From Dehalococcoidia bacterium (lineage in GTDB: Bacteria > Chloroflexota > Dehalococcoidia > SpSt-223), in NCBI GenBank assembly GCA_046328265.1, contig JAXLWW010000001.1:565414-629413 (forward strand): a stretch of DNA of 64,000 bases, written 5' to 3'. A program made the translations under genes and the position numbers. Shown here one piece after another: positions 1-36,692 of this stretch. Position 1 is the first letter of the stretch; each line of letters opens with the position of its first letter. The notes below the pieces were generated by a model, which saw only the letters and a program-made list of their open reading frames with translations, had not been told where the DNA came from and did no database searches.

Positions 1-2162
1 GCGCGCTGCAGATTGTCGTCGTCGCGGCACTGCTTCACGATATAGGCGTTCTCGCGCAACGCTCGATGGATAGCTCCGGCCCGACGACTGGGCATGCAGC
101 GCTCGCTGCTGCCTTTGTCGCCGAGCGTGCTCCCGCGCCATTTCGTGAAGCGTCATCGCTGATTCTCGCCCACCATCGGCCCGACGACCGGCTAAGCCGG
201 ATACTCGAGGCCGCCGATCGGATCGCTGCAGCCGGCCCGGACGACGAAGACGCCGGTCGGCCGATCCTGCAACGGCGGTCGGCGATCCCGGCTATTTCCC
301 ACGACCCAACAACGCCCGCGCGTACCACGTCGTTCTTCGAGGTCGGGTCGCTTCCCAGTTCGCTCGAAGCGAATGCCCCACGCACCAGCCCGATGGAGCG
401 CGACGAGGTGCGCCGCCGACTGATCAGCCTGGCCGAGATGATTGCTACCGAACATATCGCCGCCGCGAGCCCGGACTTCACCTGCTATGTCCGCGGTCTG
501 CTCGACCTGATCGATCGGGTCGCCTGCTTCGCTCCAGCGCCGTCGCGCGAACCAAGTAATGACATCTCGCTTGCCACGCACCTTCGCTTGACCGCCGCAC
601 TGGCAGCTTGCCTGCTTCGCGATGATACCGACGACGCGACGCTTGGAGCCCTTGTTGCCGAGGACGGCGGATCGCTCGACGCGCCTGTTGCCGTGCTCGT
701 TTCCGGAGTGCTGAAGCGACATCCCACGCGTCCGGATAGCACGCTCAGCCTTCCGATGCTCCAGGCTCGTGCCCTGCTAGACGGCGAATTGACGTCGGCG
801 GTCGAGGATTGGCTGCTGCGCTCGCTCGACCTTCCGCCGGTCTGTCGGATTGCTGGAAGCAGCGAGGGGTTCCTTCTGCTGGTTCCGTTGGCCGCTCAGG
901 ACCGACTGCCGTCGATCGCCCTCGATCTCGAGCGCCGGCTACTCGATGGTGGTGGGGAAACCGCTGCCCGGCTTGCCTGGGAGCCGATATCCGGCCGTGG
1001 TATCGCCAACCGTGCCGGAACGCTGGTCGCCAACCTGGCCAGACAGCGCTCGGCGCCGCGGCCGTTTGGTTCGACGTCGGCGGCGGATCTCAGTCGGTTG
1101 TTTGCCGCCCGCGACCCCGACGACGACGATCGAGCAGCCGAGTTGGGCCAACTCGCCGACCAACTTCGCCAGGCTAGTCATTTGCTGGTAGCGGACGTCG
1201 AGGAGCCACTCGGACCCGTGCGGATCGTCGAGCGACCGTTGGCGGCCTTCGGCCGATCGATCGTAGTGGTGGCTGGCGCCACGCCGCCTGACCTCCCAGC
1301 CGGGGCGCGACGGGCGCGTCTGGAACGCTTTGGTCAGAGTGGCCCACATGAGGCCAGTTGGCGTGCCTGGGCGCAACGTCAATCGGCTCCGGTTGCCCTC
1401 GTCAGTCGACCGCCTTTCTCCCCGGCCAACGACGACTCGTCTGGGCTCTTGGTGCTCGATCTCGATTCGTCGAGGGATCTCCTCGCCGAAGGCCTGGCCA
1501 ACGCGCCCTTGGCTCGGGTGATCGATCTCTTGGGATTGCTCCAGCATTTCCTGCGGACGGTTGCGCCGATAGCCGCAGCCGAGCAGTCGGGCGTTCCGGT
1601 TGCGCTCGTCGCGACGGGCGCCGACGACCTGACGGTGGCTGCGCCTCCAGAAGCGTTGCCAAGAATTGGTTTCGCGGTTGCCCAGAGTCTGGCGGCGATC
1701 ACCGGCGAGCATCCGGCGCTTCGCTTGAGCGCCGCGGTGGCCCCGATCGGTCGTCCGGCTCAGGCCATCGCCGCAGCGGAGTGGCTCCTGCGCCAGTCCG
1801 CCAAGCGATACCGGCGCGTATCTGGTCGAGAAAAGGACGCCATCGCCCTGTTTGGCGGTACGGTTGGTTGGGACGAGTTCCCGGCGGTCTGGGAGCGCTA
1901 CACTCGCCTCAACGATCTCATCGGCAAACGGCGAGTATCACCTCGGCTGCTCGCCATCCTTCAGGCCGTCGATCGTGGCGGCGTTTGGAGGGCGACCTAC
2001 GACCTTCGCCAAATGTCCCAAGGTGGACGATTGCCGGAGGCGGACGCCGCCACCTTTGCCGCGGAGTTGGCACGCCCTGACAGTGCGGCTCGCCTCGCAC
2101 TCGCCGCCCGTTGGGCGGAGACAGCAGTTCAATCGCGCAACGCGGAGGCACGCCATGAATGA
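1..2162 (+). CDS. cas10: Cas10/Csm1 large subunit of a type III CRISPR-Cas effector, 5'-partial (about 10-20 codons lost at the window edge). HD domain present; palm GGDD replaced by GADD; no CxxC zinc finger.
   Basis: The reading frame is open from position 3, upstream of the annotated ATG at 66. It translates ALQIVVVAALLHDIGVLAQRS, which matches the N-terminal HD motif of Csm1 (consensus ...YGALLHDIGK...), followed by a second His cluster (ILAHHRPDD). Palm-2 strand LLVLDLDSS (DxD) and ALVATGADDLTVAAPPE sit where Cas10 has the GGDD motif. Size is ~710 aa. Genes immediately downstream are csm2-csm5. Confidence 0.8.
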   Translation, partial: ALQIVVVAALLHDIGVLAQRSMDSSGPTTGHAALAAAFVAERAPAPFREASSLILAHHRPDDRLSRILEAADRIAAAGPDDEDAGRPILQRRSAIPAISHDPTTPARTTSFFEVGSLPSSLEANAPRTSPMERDEVRRRLISLAEMIATEHIAAASPDFTCYVRGLLDLIDRVACFAPAPSREPSNDISLATHLRLTAALAACLLRDDTDDATLGALVAEDGGSLDAPVAVLVSGVLKRHPTRPDSTLSLPMLQARALLDGELTSAVEDWLLRSLDLPPVCRIAGSSEGFLLLVPLAAQDRLPSIALDLERRLLDGGGETAARLAWEPISGRGIANRAGTLVANLARQRSAPRPFGSTSAADLSRLFAARDPDDDDRAAELGQLADQLRQASHLLVADVEEPLGPVRIVERPLAAFGRSIVVVAGATPPDLPAGARRARLERFGQSGPHEASWRAWAQRQSAPVALVSRPPFSPANDDSSGLLVLDLDSSRDLLAEGLANAPLARVIDLLGLLQHFLRTVAPIAAAEQSGVPVALVATGADDLTVAAPPEALPRIGFAVAQSLAAITGEHPALRLSAAVAPIGRPAQAIAAAEWLLRQSAKRYRRVSGREKDAIALFGGTVGWDEFPAVWERYTRLNDLIGKRRVSPRLLAILQAVDRGGVWRATYDLRQMSQGGRLPEADAATFAAELARPDSAARLALAARWAETAVQSRNAEARHE

Positions 2163-2655
2163 AGCCCCGGAGCGTCGCGGACCCCCGCGCCAGGGCAACG
2201 CACCCCGGCCAGGCGGGCCGCCACGCGGCGACCGCCGACCGCCAGAACCGTACCGCCCGATCGACCCGAAGGACTTACGAGCGATTGTGGTAGATGGCAA
2301 CGCTGCCGCGACCGTCCAGGAGGCGCAACGTCTGGCTCGGGTGCTGGCCGGCGAGCGGCTCGAAGCGCGCCACGCGACCAGTGGAGCGTTGCGGACGCTC
2401 TGGGGAACGTTGCGGGAAATGGCGATTGACTGGCCAGTCGCAGCGGGTGGCGGTCTGCCCTTGCTTAAGCCGAGGCTTGCCTACCTTGCTGGCCGGGCTG
2501 GCCCGGCAGGACGCGGGGTTGGCGACCTTCAGTCGGTGATCGCGCCGGCGATTGACCTGGTGGGCGATGACCGGGACCGTTTCGATCACCTCGTCGATTT
2601 TGTCGAGGCCGTGATGGCCTATTACTTTGCCGGGCCGCAGTTCGGCGGCCGCTAA
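2155..2655 (+). CDS. csm2: Cas11/Csm2-like small subunit. Start overlaps the cas10 stop (ATGAATGA).
   Basis: 166-aa ORF lying exactly between cas10 and csm3. About 40 aa of Pro/Arg/Gly-rich low complexity at the N-terminus, then ~125 aa of predicted helical sequence (DLRAIVVDGNAAATVQEAQRLARVL...FDHLVDFVEAVMAYYF). Position and size fit Cas11; sequence similarity alone is weak. Confidence 0.5.
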   Translation: MNEAPERRGPPRQGNAPRPGGPPRGDRRPPEPYRPIDPKDLRAIVVDGNAAATVQEAQRLARVLAGERLEARHATSGALRTLWGTLREMAIDWPVAAGGGLPLLKPRLAYLAGRAGPAGRGVGDLQSVIAPAIDLVGDDRDRFDHLVDFVEAVMAYYFAGPQFGGR

Positions 2656-2670
2656 CTGAGGAGGACCGAG

Positions 2671-3483
2671 ATGGCCGACGGAACGCCGACCACGCTCTTT
2701 GGACGCATCATCTGCCGCGCCGTCGTCGAGGTCGAAACCGGGCTGCACGTCGGTGCAAGCACCGCAAGTGGCGCCGTGACCGGGCTGGACTTCCCGGTGG
2801 TGCGCGACGCTTTGACCGGCCAGCCGTACTTGCCAGGGTCGTCGCTCCGCGGGAAGTTGCGCGCCGAAACGGAGCGACTACTCGGGCTTGCGCCAAATGC
2901 GTCGGGCCGTGGCGGCCCGCAGTTCTACGTTCCGCAGAACCAGGCTGACTACGATTCAAACCCGATCGGCCGGTTGTTCGGCGTGCCAGGTGCTCGTTCG
3001 TTTCGGGTGGATGCCGCGGCCCGGCTGGTTGTGCGCGACGCCTTCCTGACACCGGACAGCGCTGCCGCGCTCAAACGAGCACGCACCGACCTCCCCTATA
3101 CCGAGGTGAAGGCCGAAGCCGCGGTCGACCGGATCACCGCTGAAGCGTTGCCTCGCCACATCGAGCGTCTGCCGGCGGGAGCGCGTCTCGGTCCGCTCGA
3201 ACTGGTCTACAGCGTCTATACCGCCCAAGACCTCGCCGATTTCACCTGGGTCGCTCGCGGCCTGCAACTGGTCGAGGACGACTATCTCGGCGGGCATGGA
3301 TCGCGCGGCAGCGGGAAGGTGCGATTCCGCGATATCGAGGTGGTGGTCCGGTCGCGCGCTGCCTATCGTGGGGAGGAGGGCGGCGCATTTGACCCTCGGA
3401 GGTTCGACGATGTCGGCACGTTGATTGCTGGTCTCGACGAACTCACGGGAGCGATCCGGACGGCGCTGGCGCTGCCCGCGTGA
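2671..3483 (+). CDS. csm3: Csm3 (Cas7-family RAMP backbone subunit). The putative target-RNA cleavage Asp is retained.
   Basis: Strong SD (GAGGAGG) 7 nt upstream of the ATG. Hallmark motifs GLHVGAS, GLDFPVVRD (Asp-containing loop), YLPGSSLRGKLR (Cas7 G-rich segment) and the C-terminal glycine-rich loop GGHGSRGSGKV. Confidence 0.85.
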   Translation: MADGTPTTLFGRIICRAVVEVETGLHVGASTASGAVTGLDFPVVRDALTGQPYLPGSSLRGKLRAETERLLGLAPNASGRGGPQFYVPQNQADYDSNPIGRLFGVPGARSFRVDAAARLVVRDAFLTPDSAAALKRARTDLPYTEVKAEAAVDRITAEALPRHIERLPAGARLGPLELVYSVYTAQDLADFTWVARGLQLVEDDYLGGHGSRGSGKVRFRDIEVVVRSRAAYRGEEGGAFDPRRFDDVGTLIAGLDELTGAIRTALALPA

Positions 3484-4409
3484 ACCTGACGCTGCTTCGC
3501 CTTCAGCCGAGAGGGCCGTTCCATTTTGGGACCGACCACACCGGTGCGCCTGCGCCGGTGATCGGCTCGGATACCCTCTTTAGCGCGGTTTGTCTGGCCC
3601 TGCGCGACCTGTTTGGTCCGGTGCGGCTGACCAGCTTCGTTCGGGTGGTGCGCAGTGCCGCCGACCCGCCGTTGCGGCTCTCGAACGCGATGCCCTTTTC
3701 GGGGAACGTGCTCTTTCTGCCCGCACTTTCAGGGGATGGCTGGGTCTCGCAGTCGCTATTTGAGGCGCAGATCGCCGGCGAGCCGCTACCAGAAACGCGG
3801 CACTTGCAGGCCGGCTGGCTTCAGGCATGCGAAGCCGACGACCTGCCAGTGGAGCGAGTATGGACGGTCGATCGCCGGCGACGGGTGCGGCTCGGAGCAG
3901 GAACGCCGGAGCCGTTCGAGGACAGCGCTGTGCGCTTTGCCTCCGGCTGCGGACTGGCAGTGCTGGCGTTGATCGACGCTGAGTGGCGGGACGACGTGCT
4001 TGCGGCGATCCGCTCGCTTGGTGACAGCGGGATTGGCGGACGGCGTTCGACCGGCGCTGGACAGTTCGATCTGGCGGTCGAATCACTCGACCTCCGCGTG
4101 CCGGATGCGCCGACGGCCTACTGTACGCTGTCGTATTACCTACCATCCGCACGTGAGCTTGAGCAGGGTGTCCTGAACGAGCCGGCTCACTACCGGATCG
4201 ACGACCGGACCGGCTGGACGAGCGGGCCAGCCGGCAGCTTTCGACACCGTTCGGTTCGGATGATTACCGCTGGTAGTGTCGTCGCGCCGGTTGACTCCCG
4301 GCCGCCGGTTGGTCGGCTCGCCGACGTCACACCGACGGGCTTTCGTGATCACGAGGTACTTCGCGCCGGTTGGAGCTTCCCCATCGGCGTTCGGGGTGGC
4401 GCTGCATGA
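3480..4409 (+). CDS. csm4: Csm4 (Cas5-family RAMP). GTG start overlaps the csm3 TGA (GTGA).
   Basis: N-terminus LLRLQPRGPFHFG...GSDTLFSAVCLAL matches the Csm4 signature (hSDTLFSAL). Glycine-rich loop GDSGIGGRRSTGAGQF. 4-bp overlaps with both neighbours. Confidence 0.8.
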   Translation: MNLTLLRLQPRGPFHFGTDHTGAPAPVIGSDTLFSAVCLALRDLFGPVRLTSFVRVVRSAADPPLRLSNAMPFSGNVLFLPALSGDGWVSQSLFEAQIAGEPLPETRHLQAGWLQACEADDLPVERVWTVDRRRRVRLGAGTPEPFEDSAVRFASGCGLAVLALIDAEWRDDVLAAIRSLGDSGIGGRRSTGAGQFDLAVESLDLRVPDAPTAYCTLSYYLPSARELEQGVLNEPAHYRIDDRTGWTSGPAGSFRHRSVRMITAGSVVAPVDSRPPVGRLADVTPTGFRDHEVLRAGWSFPIGVRGGAA

Positions 4410-5923
4410 GCGATGTGGCCCGCAACTACCGGCTCGTCGTCGACGTTCTGTCGCCGCTGGCGATTGGCTCAGGTGATTTGCCGCTTCTTCCGGAGTACGA
4501 CTACCTCGCGGACGAGGGTGCGCTGCTGGTGTACACCGCGGCGGCTGCGCGTGGTGATGATGGGCGATTGTATGGACGGCCCGACCCGGCCTATCGGCTG
4601 CCGTTTGGCGGCGTCGAGACCCGGGTCCGCTCCGACCGGTGATCAAGGACGTTCTTGGCGCTCCCTACCTGCCGGGAGCGCCCTGAAGGTGCGCTGCATA
4701 CCGGCATCGCCTCGGCTCTTCTCGAACGTGAGCGCGCGGTCGGCCGTCCGCTCAAGAAGGACGATATTGCGCCATCGGCGCGGTTCGCTGCGCAGCCAGT
4801 CGAGCGTCGGCTGTTCGGTGCACAGCCGCGAGCGAGCGGGTTGCGCGCGTTGCGAGTGAGTGACGCGATTGCCACCGAGGGAACGCGCCTCGCGCTCGCC
4901 GCCGTCCGCACCTGTGGGGTCGACGAGGGGAAGCTGGCCGCGTTATCCGAGAGGTTGGCGATCGAGGTGATCGCGCCTGGTGGGCGACTGGTCGGGTCCC
5001 TGACGATCGACGGCTCGTTCCTCGAGCAGACCGGCACGCGTTTCGAGGGAACGCCCAATCGCGGCGAGATCGGCGAGACGATCGCGCTTGCTCGCGAAGA
5101 AGGCCGTCGCCGGGCGGCCGCCGAGCGCGCCTATTTTGCGAGCGCAGGCGCGTCGGCTCTGGTTGCGTTGTTCGATGGGCTGCTCGCGTTGATCGGTACG
5201 GCCGGTGAGAACACCATGCTGGTCCAACTGGGCTGGGGAGCCGGTTGGGATTCGAAGAGCTTTGGCCCGGCGTTGACGGCCAGCGGCGACTGGCCGGCGA
5301 TCCGCGAGGAGTTCTTCGGTGGGCGAGGACGGCGCCCGGACCGCGGACGCTCTGGCGAGCGGCCACGTCCCGGCGAACGACGCTCTGGCGGTGGACGCCG
5401 TCCATCTGGGTTTCCGTCGACGCGCAAACTGGCCGATCAGGCCGGAGGACCGGGCTTTCCGCTTGGCTGGGCGCTTGTCTCTCTTGTTCCCGTCGGTGAG
5501 GCACTTCCGCTCCAAGCAACGATGCCAGCCGCCTGGCAGGATGACGCGTTCTTGGTCCAGGAGCGGGGCGCCGGTGGCGCACCAAGTCGCGCTGTTGAAA
5601 GTGTCGCACCGGCGTCGCCTTTCGCCGCGCTTCAGGCGCTGCTTAGTCCGCAGGCCGCGCCTGAGGAGCAGGGCGAGTCCGCACCTCCTCCGCCGATCGC
5701 CCGAATCGCCGATCGGGCGCTGAAAGTGGGGACGATACTCGACGCCGAGGTGGTCACGATCGAGGCGGCCAGGATCTTGGTCGATGTCGGGCGGACCGAC
5801 CCAGCCGCCCTTGATGCGGCGACCATCGGTGGCGGCAACCTCGAGGTGCGCTACCAGGTCGGACAGCGCCTACGGGTGCGGGTCATTACGCCGCCACCCT
5901 TCTTCCGCATCCGGTTGAGCTAA
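4406..5923 (+). pseudogene. csm5: Csm5 (Cas7-family RAMP) with its reading frame broken inside the conserved G-rich motif. ATG overlaps the csm4 stop (ATGA).
   Basis: N-terminal ORF MSDVARNYRLVVDVLSPLAIGSG... (Csm5-type LSPLHIGSG) ends at TGA 4640-4642. The hallmark ...VIKDVLGAPYLPG / SALK / GALHTGIASALLE... is spread over three reading frames within 4636-4700. A 422-codon ORF then resumes (4655-5923) carrying Csm5 C-terminal features (RALRVSD, LVQLGWGAGWDSKSFG) and an RG-rich insert. Confidence 0.7.
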
Positions 5924-6127: not shown

Positions 6128-6919
6128 TCAGATGGCGGGGGAAGCCCCGCCGTCGAAGTTGATTGCCGTTCCGGTGAGATAGCCAGCGAGCGTCGAGACA
6201 AGGAAGGCGATCAGACTCGCGGCTTCGTCGGCATCTGGAATATACCCAGCGGGCACTTCCCGCGCTGCTCTCTCGGCATACGCGCGGTCGAGATCGAAAT
6301 CGGGGTACATCGCCTGTGTTATGCGGTCGATCTGAGCGCTGCGCACCGTGCCGATGCAAACGGTGTTGACGGTGATGCCCTCGCCTGCGACTTCCTTCGA
6401 GAAGGCTTTGGTAAAAGCGATACCGGCGGCGCGGCTGACCGAGGTGGGGAGCGAGCCTGGGCCAGGCGTCTTGCCGCTGATCGCTGTCAGATTGACGATC
6501 CGGCCCCACCTCGCCTCGCGCATGTCCGGCAGCACCCGCCGGCTGCACCGGATCGCCCCGAGCAGCTTGAGATTGAGATCTTCCTGCCAGGCCTCGTCGT
6601 CGACCGCATCGAAGCGACGCGCCGCGGCGGTGCCGGCATTGTTGACCAGAATGGCGACCGGACCGTGCCGCTCGCGGATGATGTCAAAGAGACGATCGAC
6701 CTGGGCCGGATCGCGGACGTCGGCTGGCACACCCAGGACGGGAACGCCGGTTTCTTCCTCGAGTGATCGGGCGGTGGCGGCGAGACGCTCGGCATTGCGG
6801 GCGCAGATCGCGACCGTGGCGCCTTCGAGCGCAAAACGACGAGCGGTGGCGCGACCGATGCCGGCGCTCCCACCGGTAATGACGGCGACCTTGCCGGCGA
6901 TGCCGAGATCGAGCGGCAT
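6128..6919 (-). CDS. Short-chain dehydrogenase/reductase (SDR) family oxidoreductase.
   Basis: TGGSAGIGRA Rossmann motif, NNAG motif, and a catalytic-region spacing typical of classical SDRs. 263 aa. Confidence 0.9.
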   Translation of the reverse strand: MPLDLGIAGKVAVITGGSAGIGRATARRFALEGATVAICARNAERLAATARSLEEETGVPVLGVPADVRDPAQVDRLFDIIRERHGPVAILVNNAGTAAARRFDAVDDEAWQEDLNLKLLGAIRCSRRVLPDMREARWGRIVNLTAISGKTPGPGSLPTSVSRAAGIAFTKAFSKEVAGEGITVNTVCIGTVRSAQIDRITQAMYPDFDLDRAYAERAAREVPAGYIPDADEAASLIAFLVSTLAGYLTGTAINFDGGASPAI

Positions 6920-6932
6920 GGCGAACTCCCAG

Positions 6933-7958
6933 TTAGCGAAGCAATGGGGCGCAGGTATCGATGAGCGCCTTGGTACGCTGAAAGCGGCCGGCGCCGGTGT
7001 AATCTCGGCCGGTTGGGATCAGGATCGGAATGTCGCAACTGTCCCAGTGACCGAGCAACTGTTCGCGGGCTTGCTCGGAATCTCCGGCAATTCCCATTTC
7101 GTCGAGGATCTCGTCGGTGACGGCGTGGGCAACGGCGTCCATGCTGCGCTGGTTGAAGAACGCGTCCTGAATGGCGTTCTTTTCCGCGGTCCAACCGTGG
7201 AAGTCGAGCAACGATCCATAGGACCGGGTGGCAAGATAGTTGCCCAAGCCCATCTTACAGTCGTATCGGGCCGACTCCACGTCGTCGGACACGACGGTGG
7301 TGATCCAACGCCCCATATCGAATGATGAGCGGTCGCGCCCGGCCTTCTTGAGCCCGATCGCCACGTTTGGCTCGATGAACCCTTCGATAAAGCGGCGGGT
7401 ATAGCACGGATGACCCGCCATCCCCTCACAGAGTTCGCCGGCCAGTTGGGCCATCAGCTTGTTGACCGCGGCAATGTAGATCGGGACGCGCTCGCGTGGC
7501 TGCCAGGGGTCGCCATATCGGATTTGCGAGATGTCGTAGTAGGTTCCTTTGTAGGCGAGCGGCTCACTCGATTTGTGCGCCCAGACGGCGCGCATGATCT
7601 CGATGACTTCGCGGAGTTGGGGCGCCGGCTTTTCAACCTGAATGCCGTACTGAAACAGGTTCTGGCGTTTGGTGCCGGTGGCCAACCCAAGGATCATCCG
7701 GCCATTGGAAAGCTCGTCGACATCTGCCGATGCTGAGGCGGTGACGATCGGGTTGCGGATGAAGGAACGACAAACCCCCGAACCAATCTTGACGGTCGAG
7801 GTGTTACAGGCGAGGGCTGCGAGTGCGACAAAGGTATCTTGACCCGGGTCGTCGCTGGTGAAGACCATCTCGAAGCCGGCGGCTTCGGCGTACTTGGCAA
7901 GCTCGATCTTGTCGCGAAGGCTATTGCCGACTACTGAGATACCGAGACGTCGCGCCAT
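6933..7958 (-). CDS. LLM-class (luciferase-like) flavin/F420-dependent oxidoreductase.
   Basis: 341 aa. TIM-barrel LLM signature pattern (ILGLATGT..., GDPWQPRERVPIYIAA). Confidence 0.8.
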   Translation of the reverse strand: MARRLGISVVGNSLRDKIELAKYAEAAGFEMVFTSDDPGQDTFVALAALACNTSTVKIGSGVCRSFIRNPIVTASASADVDELSNGRMILGLATGTKRQNLFQYGIQVEKPAPQLREVIEIMRAVWAHKSSEPLAYKGTYYDISQIRYGDPWQPRERVPIYIAAVNKLMAQLAGELCEGMAGHPCYTRRFIEGFIEPNVAIGLKKAGRDRSSFDMGRWITTVVSDDVESARYDCKMGLGNYLATRSYGSLLDFHGWTAEKNAIQDAFFNQRSMDAVAHAVTDEILDEMGIAGDSEQAREQLLGHWDSCDIPILIPTGRDYTGAGRFQRTKALIDTCAPLLR

Positions 7959-8457: not shown

Positions 8458-8529
8458 GCCGACGTAGCTCAATGGTAGAGCAGCGGTTTTGTAAACCGCC
8501 GGTTGCGGGTTCGAATCCCATCGTCGGCT
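8458..8529 (+). tRNA. tRNA-Thr (anticodon UGU).
   Basis: Cloverleaf: acceptor GCCGACG/CGTCGGC, D-arm GCTC-AATGGTA-GAGC, anticodon stem GCGGT/ACCGC with loop TTTGTAA (TGT), T-loop TTCGAAT, discriminator T. CCA not fully encoded. Confidence 0.9.
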
Positions 8530-8550: not shown

Positions 8551-8638
8551 GGTAGGGTGGCCGAGTGGTTAATGGCGTCGGTCTGTAAAACCGATGGGCG
8601 GAAGCTCTACACTGGTTCGAATCCAGTCCCTACCACCA
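8551..8638 (+). tRNA. tRNA-Tyr (anticodon GUA), type II with long variable arm and encoded CCA.
   Basis: Acceptor GGTAGGG/CCCTACC, anticodon loop CTGTAAA (GTA), long variable arm TGGGCGGAAGCTCTACAC, T-arm ACTGG-TTCGAAT-CCAGT, 3' ACCA. Confidence 0.9.
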
Positions 8639-8666
8639 GGGCCCTGCCGCATGGCAGGGCTTCTTG
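8639..8666 (+). terminator. Intrinsic terminator after the tRNA operon (also between convergent genes).
   Basis: Hairpin GGGCCCTGCC-GCAT-GGCAGGGC followed by TTCTTG. Confidence 0.6.
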
Positions 8667-8677
8667 AATCGGATGAC

Positions 8678-9130
8678 CTAGCGAGAGACAGGAAGCGGGG
8701 CGAGACAGTCACGCAAAGAGCGAAGCGATTGTTCCATCGAGGCGGCGATCTCGCGCTCGAAGAAGAGCCGGCCGATTATTTTCACCAATGGGAGGCTCGG
8801 TAGGACGATCGTCGTTTCGAGGGTGGCGAGCGTGCCCTCGGGGATCGGCTCGAATAGCCACCGGCAGGTACTGTCGGGTCCGTCAAGCGTCCGCGCCGCC
8901 ATCACGTGCGGCAGGGAGAACTCAGTCACTTCGCAGTTCGCCCTGAGCGGGAAGCCGCGGACATTCGCCTCCCAGGCGAAGCGGCTGCCCAACCCATAGG
9001 GACGGTCGCTTTCCGGGCGAAAGTCGGTGAGATACTGGATGAACCGCACCACGTTGCGATAGTCCGCAACATAATGGAAGACCTCGTCCTGCGGGGCGGA
9101 AATCCGGATACATCGAGCGAGCGCGATCAT
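8678..9130 (-). CDS. SRPBCC (Bet v1/START/polyketide-cyclase-like) family protein. The longest ORF extends to 9190; the likely start is the internal Met (MIALARCIRISAPQDEVF...).
   Basis: ~150-aa core with the typical N-terminal I.AP.e.V...v.DY pattern. Size and hydrophobic pattern fit the SRPBCC fold. Confidence 0.5.
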   Translation of the reverse strand: MIALARCIRISAPQDEVFHYVADYRNVVRFIQYLTDFRPESDRPYGLGSRFAWEANVRGFPLRANCEVTEFSLPHVMAARTLDGPDSTCRWLFEPIPEGTLATLETTIVLPSLPLVKIIGRLFFEREIAASMEQSLRSLRDCLAPLPVSR

Positions 9131-9459: not shown

Positions 9460-9936
9460 GTGGTATACTTGCCTATGCCCTCGAAAGAAGCTGGTGAGCC
9501 GCTTGCGGTCAACCGGAAGGCGTTTCACGACTATTTCATCGACGAGACGTTCGAGGCAGGTCTGGCGCTGACCGGCACCGAGATCAAGTCCGTGCGTAAG
9601 GGGAATATCAACCTGCGCGAGGGCTATGTTCGGCCGGAAGGCGGCGAGATGTGGCTGCTCGGGGTGCATATCGCACCGTACGAGCAGGGGAACATTTACA
9701 ACCACGACCCGAGGCGACGGCGTAAGCTACTGCTCCACCGGCGCGAGATTGTCGAACTCTCGGCCAAGGTGAAGGAAAAAGGGCTGACGCTCGTGCCGCT
9801 GCGGGTCTACATCAAGAACGACGTGGCAAAGCTGGCATTTGGCCTGGCGCGCGGCAAGAAGCAGCACGACAAGCGCGATGCCATCGCCGAGCGCGATGCC
9901 AATCGTGAGATTGAACGGGCGCTCAAAGTCCACTGA
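9460..9936 (+). CDS. smpB: SsrA-binding protein SmpB. GTG start at 9460, alternative ATG at 9475.
   Basis: AVNRKAFHDYFIDETFEAGLALTGTEIKSVR and GYVRPEGGEMWLLGVHIAPY match the SmpB consensus. Followed directly by the tmRNA gene. Confidence 0.9.
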   Translation: MVYLPMPSKEAGEPLAVNRKAFHDYFIDETFEAGLALTGTEIKSVRKGNINLREGYVRPEGGEMWLLGVHIAPYEQGNIYNHDPRRRRKLLLHRREIVELSAKVKEKGLTLVPLRVYIKNDVAKLAFGLARGKKQHDKRDAIAERDANREIERALKVH

Positions 9937-9963: not shown

Positions 9964-10317
9964 GGGGACGCCAGGTTTCGACAGAGGGGGAAGTGACGCG
10001 ATTGCGAGCCGAGGAAGCCGATCCACTCGTAAACGATTCGGCGTGCCATAACTGGCAACACCAACTACGCTCTCGCCGCCTAAACAACGGTGACGTCTAC
10101 CCTCTCCTCATCCCGGCGGGCGGGGAGTGGGCGCCATGCAGCCGGGATGCTCGCCCGTTGACGTCGATAGGACGGGCGCTAAGACCCATCGGCTAGCCCG
10201 GAGGAACCCCGTCGGTGGGGGACCTTCAGGCGAAGCTCTAAATCGCCGACTACGCTCGTAGATATCGCGCAGTGATCTGCTCTGGACGGGGAGTTCGATT
10301 CTCCCCCGTCTCCACCA
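9964..10317 (+). ncRNA. ssrA: tmRNA (ssrA), 354 nt. Encoded tag ...NTNYALAA followed by TAA.
   Basis: 5' GGGGACGCCAGGTTTCGAC... and 3' ...GGACGGGGAGTTCGATTCTCCCCCGTCTCCACCA form a tRNA-Ala-like acceptor/T-arm with the G3:U wobble. Internal ORF ggc aac acc aac tac gct ctc gcc gcc taa at 10052-10081. Confidence 0.9.
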
Positions 10318-22671: not shown

Positions 22672-23610
22672 CTAACAAGCCCCTTGATTGTTCTGTTCGG
22701 TGGGCGATGGTTCTAGTTCGTGAGTTTCGAGAACGATCCACCCGTCGCCTTTGACTGCATTCTTGCCAACGTGGATAACCTCCCCCCATCTTAGCCAGGG
22801 GAGCAAGGGGGAGAGATCGCCGCGCCAGGTGGCCTGGCCAACGAGACCGCCGGTAGGAGTGACGCGACCCGAGCGGCGCGATCCGCTCCAGGTATCCCGC
22901 CAACGGGTAGAGTCCTCCATCAACACGGCTGCGCTTGCCGGTCTGCCAAGGTCGTGATCGAGCGAACGCCAGGCTTCGGGCGGTGGCGGACCGTCGCCAT
23001 AGAGGGTCGAGAGTGCCTCGACCCGCTCGAGGAGCCGACGTAGGAGAATACTCAGGTCAGGGCTTCGGACGAGCGCCCCGCGCTCGGTCAGGCGTAGAGG
23101 CGTCTTGAGGTCAATGGTGAGTGCGCTTGCTGCGCCGCCGGCTACCACATCGTCCGTTACGTCACCGTCTTGGTTGTCGCGCGGCGAGCGGCGCATGACC
23201 GAATCGAGTACCGAACGTCCGCGGCCACGACCAATCCCGTGCTCGGCGGCAAGCACAATTGCTGTGCTGACCGCGTCTTCGAAATCAATGGCCGGCCCAA
23301 TCAGGGTAACGCCGACGCGCCAGGTTTCGCCGACGGCTGCCGTCGCGTTCTCAGGTTCGATTGTGAAGGGGCGAGGTAGATCGCGCCCACGCGGCCAGGC
23401 CGGGTCGGTCCCACCCACCAGCAAGCAGAACGGACATGTTTGACGATGGTCTGGGTTGGGGGCGGGACCGTCGGGACAGGCAAGAGCACGAAGCGCGGTG
23501 ACGAACGCGCCGCGGAGCGCCGAGCCGGGATTGCTTCCCAGGTCGATCAGGTCGAAAGCACGCAGGGTAAACCAAAGCCGCCGCGCTCGCAGCCCGGTCT
23601 GGAGCGTCAC
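22672..23610 (-). CDS. Cas6-like RAMP-fold protein (solitary). GTG start overlaps the aceE stop (GTGA).
   Basis: N-terminus RLWFTLRAFDLIDLGSNPGSALRGAFVTALRAL and C-terminus GLVGQATWRGDLSPLLPWLRWGEVIHVGKNAVKGDGWIVL resemble the Cas6 pattern (G.vG.v...gd..l..ll.lgE..hvGk.t..G.G), including the G-x5-G-x-G glycine-rich loop. No CRISPR repeats adjacent. Identification is from remembered family signatures only. Confidence 0.45.
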   Translation of the reverse strand: MTLQTGLRARRLWFTLRAFDLIDLGSNPGSALRGAFVTALRALACPDGPAPNPDHRQTCPFCLLVGGTDPAWPRGRDLPRPFTIEPENATAAVGETWRVGVTLIGPAIDFEDAVSTAIVLAAEHGIGRGRGRSVLDSVMRRSPRDNQDGDVTDDVVAGGAASALTIDLKTPLRLTERGALVRSPDLSILLRRLLERVEALSTLYGDGPPPPEAWRSLDHDLGRPASAAVLMEDSTRWRDTWSGSRRSGRVTPTGGLVGQATWRGDLSPLLPWLRWGEVIHVGKNAVKGDGWIVLETHELEPSPTEQNNQGAC

Positions 23611-25994
23611 GCCGCGAGATCGAGTGCCGCAAACGCTGCGGCGATGATCGCGTCGGCGTCAATGCCGAAATGGCGATAGAGGTCGGCACGCGTCCCGGAT
23701 TGACCAAACTGATCGACGCCCAATGGAACGACCGGAGCGCCGAAGATGCCACCCAGAAAGGCAAGGCCGTGTGATGCGCCATCGGCGACGGTGACGATTG
23801 GCGCTCGCCGCTCGTCCCCCGGAATGAGTGTCTCCAACTGGCCGAGGCTGCTCGTCCCGCCGGCGCGCTGATGGCGTCGTCCGGCTGTTGCCGATACAAA
23901 GAGCCGGTTTGCGCTGGTGATGGCCAGAACGTTGGCCGCGACGCCTTCCCGGTGCAGTCGGCGAGCGGCCTCGACCGCCTCCGGAGTCATGGTTCCAGCG
24001 ACGGCGATCTGGACGATTGCCGACGGATCCGTGTCGGGCGCATCGTAGCGAGCGTCAATCAGCCGATAGCCGCCGGTCAGGACCTGACGCCGAAGCTCCT
24101 GTTCGCCGAGTCTGGCGAGCGCGCCATCGAGCAGTTGTTGGGCCAATGGTTTTGTTGAGAGCCGCAGATATGTGGAGCGCCCGTGCTTGCGGTCGGCGCA
24201 CTGACGCAGAGCTTCGAGCAGGATCCATTCGACTTCGCGGGCAAAAGCCGGCTCGTAGCTGATCAGGTTTGGCAGTTCCAGGCCGAGAGATGGAGTGACG
24301 GTCGATTGGTGTGCTCCACCTTCCGGGCTGAGCGAGATCCCAGACGGCGTACCGACGACAATGAACTTTGCTTCCGAATACAGACCGTGGATAAAGGCGT
24401 CCAACCCGCGAAGGACAAAGGGGTCGTAGACGGTCCCGATCGGGAGCAGAAGTTGGCCCAACAACTCTTGAGAAAGCCCGAGTTGCTCGAGCAGCAAGAA
24501 CAGGTTCATTTCCGAGATGCCAAGCTCGATGTGCTGGCCGGTTGGGCTGGGCTGCCAGCGTACCGGTTGCGGGCCCGTCTCGAAACTGTCCTCACCGGTC
24601 GCACTATAGACCCCGACGCGGTTGATCCAGCCGCCAAGGTTGGTCGAGACCGCGACGTCCGGCGCGACGGTGACGATCCGGGCGCCGATTTCCGGCAGGC
24701 GCGACAGTTCGACCAGCAACCGGCCGAGCGTCTCCTGAGTTGAGGTGATGGAAAGCGGGCGATGATCGATCTGGGGCGGGATGTCGTCGGGCGTCAGGGC
24801 AAGCACGTCGGATGGTTCGGCTGGTTCGCGAAGCCGGTTGGTCGCACGCTGACACAACTCCGCCTCGAGCGTGCCGCTCGGAAAGCGCGGCCATTCGTCC
24901 TCCGACGGGATACCCAGTCGAACCGCCAAGTCCTCCACCTGCTTGCCGGTCAGCAGGGCCGAATGGTTGAGCGGGTGACCGGCAATCGGCAACCCCCAGC
25001 CCTTGATGGTGTAGGCGAACACGACGCTCGGACGGTCGCGAACGCTGGCGGCTTGGTGAAGCACTTTCAGCAGTTCGCCAATGTCATGGCCACCAAGGTC
25101 GCTCAGCAAGTCGGGAATATCGGCGTCTGCGAAGAGCGCGAGCGCGCGCTCGACGCCGGCTGGGTCATCCGACCCGACGATAAGGCGCTCGCGGCAAATC
25201 GCGCCAGGCAACCGGATCGCCGCCTGGTATTCCTCGTTGCTCATGTCGTCAATTCGGGTGCGAAACGCTGCCCCACCTGGTCCAGCGAACACCTGCTGCA
25301 GTCGTCGGCCATATTTCGCTTCGACGACATGCCAGTCGCTGTCGCGAAACAGGGCTTGGAGTTGGCGGGCACGGATACCCGGGACGACCCGGTCAAGGCT
25401 CTGTCGGTTGAGATCAACGATCCAGATGACATTGCCAACATCGCGCAGATGCTCCTCGGTCACGGCCTCCCAGACGTTCCCTTCGTCCAGTTCCGCGTCG
25501 CCGACGAGCGCGATATACCGGCGATCTTCTGGGCCGCCGAAGTGAAAGCGGACATAGCGATCGGCGAGGGCGGCAAAGGCCGGCGCGGCAGCGCCTAGAC
25601 CGACCGATCCTGTCGAAAAGTCCACCGGGTCCGGGTCTTTCGTTCGACTTGGGTAGGCCTGAAGTCCGCCGAAACTGCGCAGGGTGGTGAGGTAGCGACG
25701 GTCGAGATTACCCAGCAGGTATTGGACAGCGTGATAGGCTGGCGAGGCGTGCGGTTTGACCGCCACGCGATCACCGGCGCGGAGAAACGAAAAGTACAGC
25801 GCCGTCAACGTCGCGACCATCGATGCCGACGAAGCTTGATGGCCACCGACCTTGGTGCCATCGACATCAGGACGGAGATTGTTGGCGTGGTGGACGATGT
25901 TCGTCGATAGCCAGAGCACTCGGCGTTGGATCCGATCGAGTGCGGCAAGTTCCTCTGGAGACGGCAGCCAATCGTGTGCCGGAGCTTGACGCAT
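23607..25994 (-). CDS. aceE: Pyruvate dehydrogenase E1 component, homodimeric AceE type (ThDP-dependent). Start placed at the ATG with a strong SD; the longest ORF begins at GTG 26054.
   Basis: Blocks collinear with E. coli AceE: LDRIQRRVLWLSTNIVHHAN, GGHQASSASMVATLTALYFSFLRA, FSTGSVGLG, LVGDAELDEGNVWE, VIWIVDLNRQSLD, and C-terminal FGQSGTRADLYRHFGIDADAII. SD AAGGAGG lies 6 nt before ATG 25994. Confidence 0.9.
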   Translation of the reverse strand: MRQAPAHDWLPSPEELAALDRIQRRVLWLSTNIVHHANNLRPDVDGTKVGGHQASSASMVATLTALYFSFLRAGDRVAVKPHASPAYHAVQYLLGNLDRRYLTTLRSFGGLQAYPSRTKDPDPVDFSTGSVGLGAAAPAFAALADRYVRFHFGGPEDRRYIALVGDAELDEGNVWEAVTEEHLRDVGNVIWIVDLNRQSLDRVVPGIRARQLQALFRDSDWHVVEAKYGRRLQQVFAGPGGAAFRTRIDDMSNEEYQAAIRLPGAICRERLIVGSDDPAGVERALALFADADIPDLLSDLGGHDIGELLKVLHQAASVRDRPSVVFAYTIKGWGLPIAGHPLNHSALLTGKQVEDLAVRLGIPSEDEWPRFPSGTLEAELCQRATNRLREPAEPSDVLALTPDDIPPQIDHRPLSITSTQETLGRLLVELSRLPEIGARIVTVAPDVAVSTNLGGWINRVGVYSATGEDSFETGPQPVRWQPSPTGQHIELGISEMNLFLLLEQLGLSQELLGQLLLPIGTVYDPFVLRGLDAFIHGLYSEAKFIVVGTPSGISLSPEGGAHQSTVTPSLGLELPNLISYEPAFAREVEWILLEALRQCADRKHGRSTYLRLSTKPLAQQLLDGALARLGEQELRRQVLTGGYRLIDARYDAPDTDPSAIVQIAVAGTMTPEAVEAARRLHREGVAANVLAITSANRLFVSATAGRRHQRAGGTSSLGQLETLIPGDERRAPIVTVADGASHGLAFLGGIFGAPVVPLGVDQFGQSGTRADLYRHFGIDADAIIAAAFAALDLAA

Positions 25995-26072
25995 CACCCC
26001 TCCTTGGGAACATCGCGGTTCGCCCGAAAAGGGTACCACGTCACCTTGAACCACGAAGAAGCGGTGCGCGAG

Positions 26073-31182: not shown

Positions 31183-31473
31183 CTACCCGGACAATCGCGC
31201 TATGGCCTCGGCCTGATCGATGCCTTCGACGACTATGCGCTTGTGGCGGGCATGTGTCCCCTGAACGATAACGACCTGACGTTGGCGCACTCCGAGAACC
31301 CCGGCGAGGTATCTGACGAGGGCGGCATTGGCTTTGCCGTCGACAGCGGGTGCGGCAATCCATAGTCGAAGGGCGCCGCTTGGCTGAAGCTCGAGCGCAT
31401 TTCGCTTTGCGCCGGTGGCGACAGTCAGGCCGAATCTCGCGGTCAGTCGCTCCAAAACCGCTGTTCCTGCCAT
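31183..31473 (-). CDS. DUF167 (YggU) family protein.
   Basis: LRLWIAAPAVDGKANAALVRYLAGVLGV...QGTHARHKRIVVEG matches the YggU pattern (APPVDGQAN...LVKFL...G...RHK). Confidence 0.7.
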   Translation of the reverse strand: MAGTAVLERLTARFGLTVATGAKRNALELQPSGALRLWIAAPAVDGKANAALVRYLAGVLGVRQRQVVIVQGTHARHKRIVVEGIDQAEAIARLSG

Positions 31474-32096
31474 GGGTCGGCGTCGTTGTGGTAGCCGAGT
31501 TGCTCCCAGAACCCGATCCGGTCTTCGGCAAGCAGTTCAAGGCCGCGAATCCACTTGGCGCTCTTCCAAAAATAGCGCTTTGGTACCACCAGACGAAGCG
31601 GGTACCCATGGTCGAGGGTCAACGGTTCTCCGTTGTGCTCGTAAGCAAGCAGGACGTCGTCATCATACAGCGCATCGATCGGGAGGTTGGCGGTGTAGCC
31701 ATATTCGGCATGAGCGACGGCGAACTTCACCTCTGGCTTTGGACCAGCAAGCGCCAGCACGTCTTTGAGGGCGATGCCCGTCCATCGATTGTCGAGCTTG
31801 CTCCAACGAGTAACACAATGGATGTCCGACATCGTCTCGATGCGAGGCAGTGCCAGAAACTGCTCCCAGGACAGTTCGACCGACTGCTCGACGAGGCCCC
31901 AGACTCGAAACGTCCAGGTCGTGAGATCGGCCTTGGGGACCGGGCCATAATGAAGCACCGGCCACTTCTCAGTCAGAACCTGCCCTGGGGGCACCCGGAC
32001 CTGGATCGATGGGTCGAGCGACTGGCGGCGAAACGGATTGAACACGATGGTCTCTTCCTCGTGGCAGTTGAGCCTGCGATCATTGTACGAGGGCAC
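31443..32096 (-). CDS. Molybdopterin-dependent oxidoreductase, YedY/MsrP (sulfite-oxidase fold) family.
   Basis: IHCVTRWSKLDNRWTG, NGEPLTLDHGYPLRLVVP and the overall size fit MsrP catalytic subunits. Confidence 0.8.
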   Translation of the reverse strand: MPSYNDRRLNCHEEETIVFNPFRRQSLDPSIQVRVPPGQVLTEKWPVLHYGPVPKADLTTWTFRVWGLVEQSVELSWEQFLALPRIETMSDIHCVTRWSKLDNRWTGIALKDVLALAGPKPEVKFAVAHAEYGYTANLPIDALYDDDVLLAYEHNGEPLTLDHGYPLRLVVPKRYFWKSAKWIRGLELLAEDRIGFWEQLGYHNDADPWQEQRFWSD

Positions 32097-32171
32097 GGAT
32101 CATGCGACAAGATCGGCGGTTGCGGCTCGATTCGGCCATCCGCTATCCTGGCTGCGAAAGCGAGGCCGACC

Positions 32172-33428
32172 GTGTACCGCGCGCCGCGGGGAATGCAGGA
32201 TATCCTCCCCGACGATCAACCCGACTGGCAGCACCTTCTCCATCTCTGTGACGACATCGCTCAACGCTACGGCTATCGTCGTATCGATACGCCACTTGTC
32301 GAATCTACCGACGTCTTTTCGCGGGCGGTGGGAGACACGACCGACGTCGTCGAGAAGGAGATGTACACCTTCCAGGACAAAGGGGACAACTCGCTCACCT
32401 TGCGTCCCGAGTACACCGCCTCGGTCTGCCGCGCCTATCTCGAACATGGGATGGCGTCGTGGCCGCAGCCGGTCAAGCTCTATAGCGTTGGCCCGCTCTT
32501 TCGCTACGACCGGCCCCAGGCTGGCCGATACCGCCAGTTCCACCAATTCAATGCGGAGGCCATCGGCGAATCGGACCCGACCCTCGACGCCGAAATTGTC
32601 GACATGGCCGGCCGGTTGTTCGAGGTGGCGGGTATCCCGGCGGTGGCGTTGCTGATCAACAGCATTGGAGACGCCGATTGCCGGCCGGCCTATATCGAGG
32701 CGCTCCGCACCTACTTCGCCGGCCACGCGGAAGAACTTTGCAGCGATTGCCGGGACCGGCTGGAACGAAATCCGTTACGGCTCCTTGACTGCAAGAGCCC
32801 GGGCTGCCATCGACTTGGCGACCATGCCCCGAAAAGCATCGACTACCTCTGCCCTGCCTGCGCCCAGCACTTTCAGCGTCTGATCGGTTTTCTTGACCGT
32901 CTCGGTCGCCCCTGGCACATCGATCACCGGCTGGTGCGCGGGCTGGACTACTACACTCGGACCGTCTTTGAATACCAGCCGGCGGACGTGGGCGGGCAAA
33001 GCACGATCGGCGGCGGTGGGCGCTACGATGGGCTGATCGCCCAACTTGGTGGTCGAGCCACCCCGGGGATCGGCTTTGCCACCGGGCTCGAACGGATCCT
33101 GCTCAACCGTAAGAAGGCGGGTGTCGAAGCGCCGCAGCCTGCCCAACCGGTCGCGTACATCGTGACGATCGGCGCGGAGTCCGAAGTCGAAGCGGTCGCG
33201 CTGGCAGCCACCCTCCGGGCGCGTGGCATCCCGACGCTTGGACCAGTCGGCGGGCGTGGAGTGAAAGGACAGATGCGCCAGGCCAACGCATCCGGCGCAA
33301 AGTACGCGATAATCCTCGGTCCGGACGAGATCGCCGCTGGGGAAGCGCACCTAAAACCGCTGCACGGCGGGGATCCGCGCAACGTGCCTCTCGGCGACGT
33401 GGTTGCGTCCCTGATCGGTGACACCTAA
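32172..33428 (+). CDS. hisS: Histidine--tRNA ligase. GTG start chosen; the longest ORF (from 31350) overlaps the antisense msrP-like gene.
   Basis: N-terminus YRAPRGMQDILP, class II motifs (LTLRPEYTASVCRAY, FRYDRPQAGRYRQFHQFNAE, GGGRYDGL), anticodon-binding C-terminus. Confidence 0.9.
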   Translation: MYRAPRGMQDILPDDQPDWQHLLHLCDDIAQRYGYRRIDTPLVESTDVFSRAVGDTTDVVEKEMYTFQDKGDNSLTLRPEYTASVCRAYLEHGMASWPQPVKLYSVGPLFRYDRPQAGRYRQFHQFNAEAIGESDPTLDAEIVDMAGRLFEVAGIPAVALLINSIGDADCRPAYIEALRTYFAGHAEELCSDCRDRLERNPLRLLDCKSPGCHRLGDHAPKSIDYLCPACAQHFQRLIGFLDRLGRPWHIDHRLVRGLDYYTRTVFEYQPADVGGQSTIGGGGRYDGLIAQLGGRATPGIGFATGLERILLNRKKAGVEAPQPAQPVAYIVTIGAESEVEAVALAATLRARGIPTLGPVGGRGVKGQMRQANASGAKYAIILGPDEIAAGEAHLKPLHGGDPRNVPLGDVVASLIGDT

Positions 33429-33517
33429 CTCGCCATTCAATTCTATCGTGAGAGATCTGGGGGCTGTCTCCGCTCCAGTGGTGGGGTGAGCGAGGCTGTA
33501 CCGATGACCCGAGGTGC

Positions 33518-34594
33518 TTGATGTACCACCGCCTGGACGCCGTTGTGAGTCGCTACGAAGATCTTGCCCAAGCGCTTGCCGACCCGGCGAACCTGAACGA
33601 CTACGAACTGTTAATTAGGCTGAATAAAGAGCGCACCGAGATCGAACCGGTGGTCGAACTGTATCGCGACTACCGCAAGGTCGAAGGTGATCTCGCGGAT
33701 GCGCGCCAACTCCTCGACGAGGAGAGCGATACCGAACTTGTCGCGATGGCCAAAGACGAGATCGGCCGGCTCGAGCCAATGCGCGAGCAACTTGACGAGC
33801 GGCTGAAACTCGCCCTCCTGCCGAAAGACCCGAATGACGACAAGAACGTCTTCATGGAGGTGCGGGCCGGTGTCGGCGGCGAGGAGGCGGCGTTGTTTGC
33901 CGCGGACCTGTTCCGGATGTACACCCGCTACGCCGAGCGCCAACGCTGGAAGGTCGAAGTGGTCGACCTGAGCGAGGCTGAGGCAGGTGGTTATAAGGAA
34001 GTCGTCTTCGAGGTACAGGGCCGCGGAGCATACAGCCGATTGAAATGGGAAAGCGGCGTCCATCGGGTACAGCGGGTGCCCGTGACCGAAGCCCAAGGCC
34101 GAATCCACACGTCGACCGCAACGGTGGCAGTGCTGCCCGAGGTCGAAGACGTCGACTTCGAGATCCGCGACGACGACGTCGATATGGAATTCTATCGCTC
34201 CGGCGGCGCCGGAGGACAGAACGTCAACAAGGTGTCGACTGCTGTCCGGCTGCTCCACAAACCAACCGGTATCGTCGTCACCTGTCAGGACGAGCGTTCG
34301 CAGTTGAAAAACCGGCTCAAAGCGATGGCGGTCCTGCGGGCTCGTCTGTACGAAAACGAGCAGCGCAAGCGTGACGAGGCGATGGCCGCCGACCGGCGGG
34401 CGCAGGTGGGCGCCGGCGAACGCTCCGAGAAGATTCGGACCTACAACTTCCCTCAGGACCGCCTGACCGACCACCGGATAGGTCTGACGACCCACGGCCT
34501 GCCGGGGATCCTCGATGGCTCGATAGACCAGGTGATCGATGCGCTCGCCCTCGCGGACCGTACCCGTAAGCTGCAAGCCGAGGGCGTCGCCTAA
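33518..34594 (+). CDS. prfA: Peptide chain release factor 1.
   Basis: [12 protein letters not shown] (PxT motif), GGQ motif ([13 protein letters not shown]). 358 aa. Confidence 0.95.
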
Positions 34595-34612
34595 GCTGGC
34601 CATCGGGCGATC

Positions 34613-35479: not shown

Positions 35480-35552
35480 AACGCCGGGATATGCTGCTGC
35501 GTATGTATGCCAGAACGGCGTCAAGGCGCCGCAGTGCAGGCAGGGTGAAAGA

Positions 35553-36629: not shown

Positions 36630-36692
36630 TTGGCGAAAGGCCGCACCCTCAGGTGAAGATTCGGCCAGCTTCAAGACGGAGTGAGGGACGCA

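Follow-up and report, generated by a model that had tools for sequence, protein, structure and literature searches.

The 64,000-nucleotide stretch of a Dehalococcoidia bacterium (Chloroflexota) analysed here, hereafter the window (contig JAXLWW010000001.1, positions 565,414 to 629,413), opens inside the gene for Cas10/Csm1, the large subunit of a type III-A CRISPR (short palindromic repeats, clustered and regularly interspaced) effector. The ATP pocket of this Cas10 is eroded, and the locus probably encodes a Csm complex that works without signalling, as an RNA-guided effector limited to the HD DNase of Cas10 and the RNase of Csm3. So read, the locus is a known immune system in a form without signalling; neither the kind of system nor the principle is new.

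In frame 3 of the + strand the first stop codon after the window edge is at 2160-2162. The start of cas10 lies 21 nucleotides (nt) upstream of window position 3, as deduced from the independent short-read contig L001 (a Logan contig), which reaches 129 nt further upstream than the window. The full-length protein (P0001, 726 amino acids) is 100% identical to the window translation. Its public record reads 'MAG: HD domain-containing protein [Dehalococcoidia bacterium]', MAG standing for metagenome-assembled genome, and other records are labelled 'hypothetical'. Pfam detects only the HD domain above threshold, the Cas10 palm2 model scoring 16.5 bits against a cut-off of 27. The NCBIfam Csm1 model TIGR02578 matches the protein with E = 4.9e-42, at 144.5 bits, short of its curated cut-off of 170 bits. 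A family profile built from 112 aligned members matches every solved Csm1 structure (E = 1e-96 to 5e-123). The AlphaFold2 model of P0001, built with the same alignment, reaches a mean predicted local distance difference test (pLDDT) of 93.3 and a predicted template modelling score (pTM) of 0.94; in a Foldseek search of the PDB with this model the top 50 hits are all Csm1 chains (E down to 1e-22, template modelling (TM) scores of 0.73-0.76). The model thus shows a complete predicted Csm1 fold with HD, Palm1, linker, Palm2 and C-terminal helical domains. A single-sequence phmmer search of the PDB gave marginal Csm1 matches only (E = 0.02) and was replaced by the family profile; its top match, Tll0287, is a chance alignment to an Ala-rich stretch. 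The window protein is a divergent but unmistakable Csm1, the large subunit of a type III-A effector encoded on a Dehalococcoidia chromosome.

An exhaustive HMMER search of 1.84 billion representatives returned 4716 relatives, among which the query belongs to a clade of six 90%-identity clusters that form one 50%-identity cluster. Motifs were surveyed in the 150 nearest full-length relatives and residue conservation was scored in 105 outgroup sequences. The cyclase features of the query are the following.

687..731, + strand: degenerate Palm1 motif VAVLVSGVLKRHPTR (consensus LVGGDxSGVQxFIYT), with the metal-binding Asp replaced by Val and three residues deleted.
1446-1472, + strand: Palm2 DxD strand LLVLDLDSS (D493, D495), invariant in 112/112 aligned sequences.
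1617-1628, + strand: GADD at the GGDD position of Palm2 (G546, A547, D548, D549), within VALVATGADDLTVAAP (1599-1646).

GGDD stands at the aligned position in 144 of the 150 relatives. The six exceptions are the query, with GADD, and its five sisters, with TWDG, TTDG, TADG and, twice, SADG, all five having also lost the final Asp of the motif; the query has drifted less than its sisters at this motif. The first-pass annotation of this DNA, made from the letters alone, had read the DxD strand followed by GADD in place of GGDD, a reading that holds at the exact coordinates. It had taken GGDD for the P-loop of the cyclase, which has to be corrected: GGDD is the catalytic beta-hairpin of the GGDEF/Palm fold. 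The alignment with these relatives places GADD at the true GGDD position, and no second GGDD-like motif was found across the query protein.

The ATP- and Mg-binding residues defined in the Cas10 of L. lactis (PMC11417356) were placed on the query through a profile-to-structure alignment.

D253 of L. lactis (Mg for ATP1): V243 in the query.
S277 (adenine of ATP1): A264.
Y572 (stacks on ATP1): A544.
Y304 (stacks on ATP2): A291.
S546 (adenine of ATP2): L517.
D520 (metal ligand): D493, kept.
D576 (third residue of GGDD): D548, kept.
D577 (metal ligand): D549, kept.

Both Tyr/Ser pairs that recognise adenine and the Palm1 metal ligand are therefore missing. The Palm1 motif GDxSGxQxFxY reads SGVL---KRHPT in the query, the GGG turn reads SSE, and K358 is Ala. 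Among the columns at least 85% conserved in the outgroup, those replaced in all clade members are D243, Q245, F247, Y249, Y291, G294, G295 and K358 in Palm1, where a Ser and a Gly are also deleted, and R491, G498, S517, Y544 and W556 in Palm2. At S264 of Palm1 the query and one sister carry Ala, the other four still Ser. Kept in Palm2 are D493, D495, D548, K608, which is invariant, and K618. The cyclase is very probably dead because the residues that bind ATP are lost; this is the decisive point, the G-to-A change being the weakest evidence. That cyclic oligoadenylate (cOA) signalling is weakened or lost here had been proposed before from the G-to-A change and the lack of a nearby CARF effector, and the replaced pocket residues now support it more strongly. 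The same pocket losses are common to all six proteins of the clade and are therefore older than its split.

The first match outside the clade is P0007 (38% identity to the query), which a wide gap in score separates from the canonical proteins of 800-880 amino acids. Although P0007 has no zinc finger and lacks several pocket residues, GGDD persists in it together with the Palm1 Asp, and it has the look of an intermediate stage. A profile scan of genome contigs revealed, among the matches listed, only distant Cas10s (Poribacteria, Binatia, others).

The linker segment that carries a four-Cys zinc finger in the outgroup is missing as well.

1098..1151, + strand: approximate site of the deleted four-Cys zinc-finger linker (about residues 373-390 of P0001).

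P0001 has four Cys and no CxxC; gaps or Ala fill the four columns where Cys is 88-91% conserved across the outgroup. The segment is deleted in the clade and in P0007, whose proteins are therefore about 100 amino acids shorter. The absence of Cys pairs and of a zinc finger noticed at first reading is thus confirmed; the trait is not unique to the clade, however, since 24 of the 150 relatives have no CxxC and about 10-16% of the GGDD-bearing ones lack the zinc finger.

The HD domain offers the opposite picture of the cyclase pocket.

24-50, + strand: HD nuclease motif AALLHDIGV, with H19 and D20 at 36-41 (Pfam HD, E = 8.5e-6).
Up to about 240, + strand: further conserved residues of the HD domain (H38, H64, H65, D79).

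The columns more than 90% conserved in relatives are all kept (H19, D20, G22, R27, H38, H64, H65, D79, D194, S196, H200), as is P67, and nearly all conserved residues of the domain are present. The HD motif had been called intact, and both the retranslation of 24-50 and these residues bear this out. The distribution of constraint along the protein points in the same direction. Mean pairwise identities are given for the clade and the canonical outgroup; synonymous sites are saturated at 53-64% protein identity.

HD: 0.85 within the clade, 0.37 in the outgroup.
HD extension: 0.73 and 0.37.
D4: 0.69 and 0.30.
Palm2: 0.60 and 0.49.
Linker: 0.56 and 0.24.
Palm1: 0.50 and 0.40.

The clade reverses the ranking of the outgroup, with HD the most and Palm1 the least constrained, and its Palm domains behave as a scaffold would.

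Signalling partners were searched among 57 open reading frames (ORFs) called in the window, all scanned with PADLOC and 56 with Pfam; for the gene of a protein resembling the E1 subunit of pyruvate dehydrogenase (PDH-E1), discussed below, PADLOC was complemented by homology to the E1 of relatives. No CARF, SAVED or CHAT gene was found among the 57 ORFs, and tblastn of the Csx1, Cas1 and Cas2 proteins of the contig L014 against the window returned nothing. Likewise, csx1, cas1, cas2 and CARF genes are absent from the 22 kb loci (within 10 kb of cas10) of three syntenic relatives (L008, L010, L012). The previous statement that no CARF effector lies nearby is therefore valid for the 64 kb window and these three loci. 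L014 carries the nearest canonical relative with a usable contig, P0008, which has GGDD and the zinc finger; its gene order is cas10, csm2 to csm5, csx1, cas6, cas1 and cas2, followed by the first array repeat at the contig end. The csx1 gene of L014 (6312-7757) is of CARF-HEPN type and is recognised by PADLOC (E = 3e-85), whereas Pfam gives no match at E up to 0.1. CARF screening relied on PADLOC and tblastn because Pfam misses this protein, and screens based on Pfam only would miss CARF effectors of the lineage. The joint loss of the sensor-effector gene and of the cyclase pocket is what is expected if signalling was abandoned.

The four genes that follow cas10 match the type III-A equivalogs Csm2, Csm3, Csm4 and Csm5 and occur in the same order in relatives.

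1..2162, + strand: cas10/csm1, frame 3, with seven 5' codons upstream of the window.
2155..2655, + strand: csm2 (cas11), Csm2 equivalog match.
2671..3483, + strand: csm3 (cas7), TIGR02582, E = 2.6e-57.
2788-2790, + strand: catalytic Asp of Csm3, D40 in GLDFPVVRD, retained.
3480..4409, + strand: csm4 (cas5), TIGR01903, E = 3.6e-48.
4406..5923, + strand: csm5, broken in this assembly, Csm5 equivalog match.
22708..23610, - strand: cas6, Pfam CRISPR_Cas6, E = 1.5e-12, 51-58% identical to the Cas6 of relatives.

We favour a mechanism in which a Csm complex loaded with CRISPR RNA (crRNA) would recognise a complementary transcript, Csm3 would cut the bound transcript, and a conformational change would switch on the single-stranded DNA (ssDNA) nuclease of the HD domain. 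No second messenger would be made, and the Palm domains would remain as a structural, allosteric scaffold. The idea of an effector reduced to HD nuclease and Csm3 RNase was already put forward in the first-pass annotation, and the retained HD residues and D40 of Csm3 are consistent with it. The nearest precedent from experiment is LdCsm of L. delbrueckii subsp. bulgaricus (Lin et al. 2020), a III-A system with QGDD that makes no cOA, has no Csm6 and exerts a robust RNA-activated DNase activity that depends on the HD dyad, and for which the Palm2 DxD is required in allosteric activation while the DD of GGDD is dispensable (PMC7214462). The invariance of D493 and D495 against the drift of GGDD fits this behaviour, as does the retention of DxD together with D548, the Palm2 DxD of LdCsm being needed for activation of the DNase independently of the cyclase.

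The chromosomal neighbourhood is conserved among L008, L010 and L012 (long contigs) and in the upstream part of L017. Upstream of cas10 the relatives have HisRS, a molybdopterin and a GMC oxidoreductase, a KGG-repeat protein and, on the opposite strand, a BFN-domain gene; downstream, csm5 is followed by the E1-like gene and cas6, then by SBP/LLM genes and SmpB. The window has the same neighbourhood genes, differently ordered. There, cas6 lies 17 kb from csm5 on the opposite strand, separated by an inversion of ~20 kb relative to relatives; the inverted segment (about 5930-26060) runs from the E1-like gene past SmpB and the transfer-messenger RNA (tmRNA) gene. In the window, HisRS, sigma-70 and a LOG-family gene are found at 31350-37270 (+), whereas the relatives have them upstream of cas10. 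The KGG-repeat protein and the BFN-domain gene were considered as accessory genes and set aside: they give no defence-family signal and are likely housekeeping neighbours. The PDH-E1 (AceE-like) gene of ~795 codons adjoins cas6 (window 22708-26054 (-), L010 16060-19346, L012 16060-19379) and overlaps its start by 4 nt in these three loci. Its place in L010 and L012, after csm5 and before cas6, is the one that csx1 occupies in L014. Between genomes with Cas10 proteins about 53% identical, its product shows 80-87% identity. Several frameshifts break the E1-like gene in L008, where csm5 is also frameshifted.

In two genomes a conserved TGATATACT box, similar to an extended -10 element, precedes a CTGCC...GGCAG hairpin ~60 nt upstream of the cas10 start (L001 40-90, outside the window; L012 9935-9975); this is likely the operon promoter and 5' leader. 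Two tRNA genes, smpB and a tmRNA gene (Rfam, 160 bits) lie at 8458-8529, 8551-8635, 9460-9936 and 9964-10317, 2.5-4.4 kb downstream of csm5; smpB also neighbours cas6 in relatives, and no integrated element is evident around this group. Further away, a CYTH-CHAD protein of the triphosphate tunnel metalloenzyme family (57273-58772) is encoded among rpsB, tsf, pyrH, frr, uppS, cdsA and dxr, with no link to the CRISPR locus seen. No CRISPR array was detected in the window (Tandem Repeats Finder, k-mer chain and repeat search) nor within 10 kb of cas10 in the relatives. In the intergenic DNA upstream of cas10, L012 carries degenerate direct repeats whose period is 61-73 nt (6860-7600, 8631-8840, 8982-9088); they include three copies of a 35 nt segment spaced 72-73 nt apart and a unit of 29 nt similar to a type I-E repeat, and may be decayed CRISPR arrays. 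The idea that they form a mini-array with a conserved spacer belonging to the system was rejected, the repeats not being conserved in L008, L010 and the window.

Several observations weigh against a signalling-free DNase and RNase effector. Three of the four residues of GGDD, the two Asp of DxD and the invariant K608 persist in the query, given which a residual or altered nucleotidyl-transferase activity is formally conceivable; CARF or SAVED effectors could lie elsewhere in the genome, the search having covered the 64 kb window. Two HD columns depart from the family consensus in the clade (K23 to V, E85 to G), and in LdCsm the zinc-finger linker (E415, C416, C419) is important for ssDNA binding and DNase activity (PMC7214462), so that the DNase of the clade, whose linker is deleted, may be weaker or differently regulated. 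The window has no array, cas1 or cas2, and its csm5 has lost single homopolymer nucleotides after 4619, 4677 and 4686 and contains an in-frame stop. The retained residues (G546, D548, D549, D493, D495, K608) and the limited part of the genome inspected could be taken for an active cyclase that tolerates GADD as others do AGDD or SGDD, with its effector encoded elsewhere; several variants at the first position, AGDD and SGDD among them, indeed occur in loci with effectors (PMC11229360). We consider this very unlikely. GADD does not figure among the variants of effector-bearing loci (PMC11229360), replacements have removed both Tyr/Ser adenine pairs and the Mg-binding Asp of Palm1 (PMC11417356), the sisters at the same syntenic locus carry xxDG, the Palm domains evolve fastest within the clade, and the csx1 of the canonical relative was not found here.

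That the locus is a decaying, non-functional III-A remnant in which the conservation of HD is residual is unlikely, though less so than a living cyclase. It would account for the lack of array, cas1 and cas2 nearby, the displacement of cas6 by inversion, the broken csm5 and E1-like gene of L008, the repeat remnants of L012 and the csm5 lesions of the window. The latter three deletions fall within 67 nt, together put the conserved RAMP motif (PVIKDVLGAPYLPGSALKGALHT in L001) out of frame and introduce a TGA stop; they are either an assembly error or a real inactivating variant. Yet csm5 is intact (506 amino acids) in L001, an independent assembly of the same population that differs from the window by nine substitutions, six of them in csm5 and two of these non-synonymous. 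Moreover, cas10, csm2, csm3 and csm4 are open over their full length in 4/4 complete loci (window, L008, L010, L012), which also all keep cas6 and remain syntenic with Cas10 proteins only 53-56% identical; the three cas10-csm4 genes of the partial contig L017 are open too. HD is 85% identical within the clade, far above the remaining protein, and the catalytic residues of HD and Csm3 are retained. Another scenario is a domesticated module, inherited vertically, with a host function such as RNA-guided regulation or served by a distant array in trans. The conserved surroundings in relatives (upstream the GMC oxidoreductase, KGG protein and BFN; downstream the E1-like gene, cas6 and SmpB), whose genes persist rearranged in the window, the lack of array and adaptation genes within 10 kb of the relatives' cas10 or in the window, and the translational coupling of cas6 to a housekeeping-like E1 gene speak for it. 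But type III systems are often served by arrays located elsewhere, the loci come from MAGs, whose bins frequently lose arrays, and identities of 53% for Cas10 and 51% for Cas6, against 89% for SmpB and 80% for E1, reflect a fast evolution more typical of defence genes; domestication is highly improbable. Only slightly less doubtful is the broader view that a Dehalococcoidia lineage, through long divergence, kept at a single chromosomal locus a III-A effector stripped of signalling, adaptation genes and local array, with the cas6-coupled E1-like gene in the former csx1 slot, as an exapted RNA-guided host module or an effector fed only in trans rather than as a conventional immune locus.

Taken as a III-A effector reduced to its two nucleases, the locus provides a natural and readily interpretable case of secondary loss of cOA signalling inside III-A, in which the order of events is visible: P0007 lost the zinc finger and several pocket residues and kept GGDD, the clade lost the remaining pocket, and the last Asp was lost in the sisters. 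The surviving DxD, D548 and K608 fit a non-catalytic role of the Palm domains, allosteric or structural, in switching of the HD DNase. A Csm complex free of zinc finger and cyclase could serve as a compact model for RNA-activated control of a DNase. Automated surveys may miss such loci, labelled as 'HD domain-containing' or 'hypothetical' and scoring under the NCBIfam Csm1 cut-off.

Among characterised systems, LdCsm shares with the window locus the III-A gene set, an intact HD motif, the retained Palm2 DxD, a non-canonical GGDD position (QGDD in LdCsm, GADD here) and the lack of a Csm6/Csx1 partner at the locus. It differs by keeping the four-Cys zinc-finger linker deleted here and by its adjacent array of 16 spacers, none being found in our 64 kb window. 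Restoring GGDD failed to restore the activity of LdCsm, for a cause that is unclear, whereas here the adenine pairs and the Palm1 Asp are visibly lost. The two are likened by features and not by direct alignment. They show no close sequence relationship; the single-sequence search gave marginal matches to solved Csm1 chains, none of them LdCsm. The Mycobacterium-type III-A systems (cas10-csm2-csm6-cas1-cas2; L014 with P0008, and the M. canettii Csm complex 8wfx) have a Cas10 of the same family (P0008 is 31% identical to the query; 8wfx gives a Foldseek TM of 0.73) and the same csm2-csm5 order. What these canonical relatives have and the window locus lacks is GGDD, the Palm1 motif GDLSGVQRF, at least two CxxC pairs, a CARF-HEPN gene placed between csm5 and cas6, as well as cas1, cas2 and an array.

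Type III-C has a Cmr-like gene set and type III-F a reduced set with a single Cas7, both with a cyclase-inactive Cas10. They resemble the window locus in the absence of the cyclase site, in an HD domain that is often present, in having no known cOA effectors and in a presumed signalling-free immunity (PMC8730458, PMC11229360), and differ in gene content, which here is that of Csm with the III-A equivalogs Csm2 to Csm5. That the cOA pathway is secondarily lost is an acknowledged trend, which defines III-C and is characteristic of III-F (PMC8730458); in a survey of 1113 loci 8% of the Cas10 proteins are without cyclase, and within III-A cyclases are near-ubiquitous (PMC11229360). Since the Cas10 described here nests among GGDD-bearing Csm1 proteins of III-A, its loss is an independent, secondary one within this subtype. 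What is new is this independent loss of signalling within III-A, to which the deleted zinc finger adds, at a site on the chromosome conserved in a Dehalococcoidia lineage.

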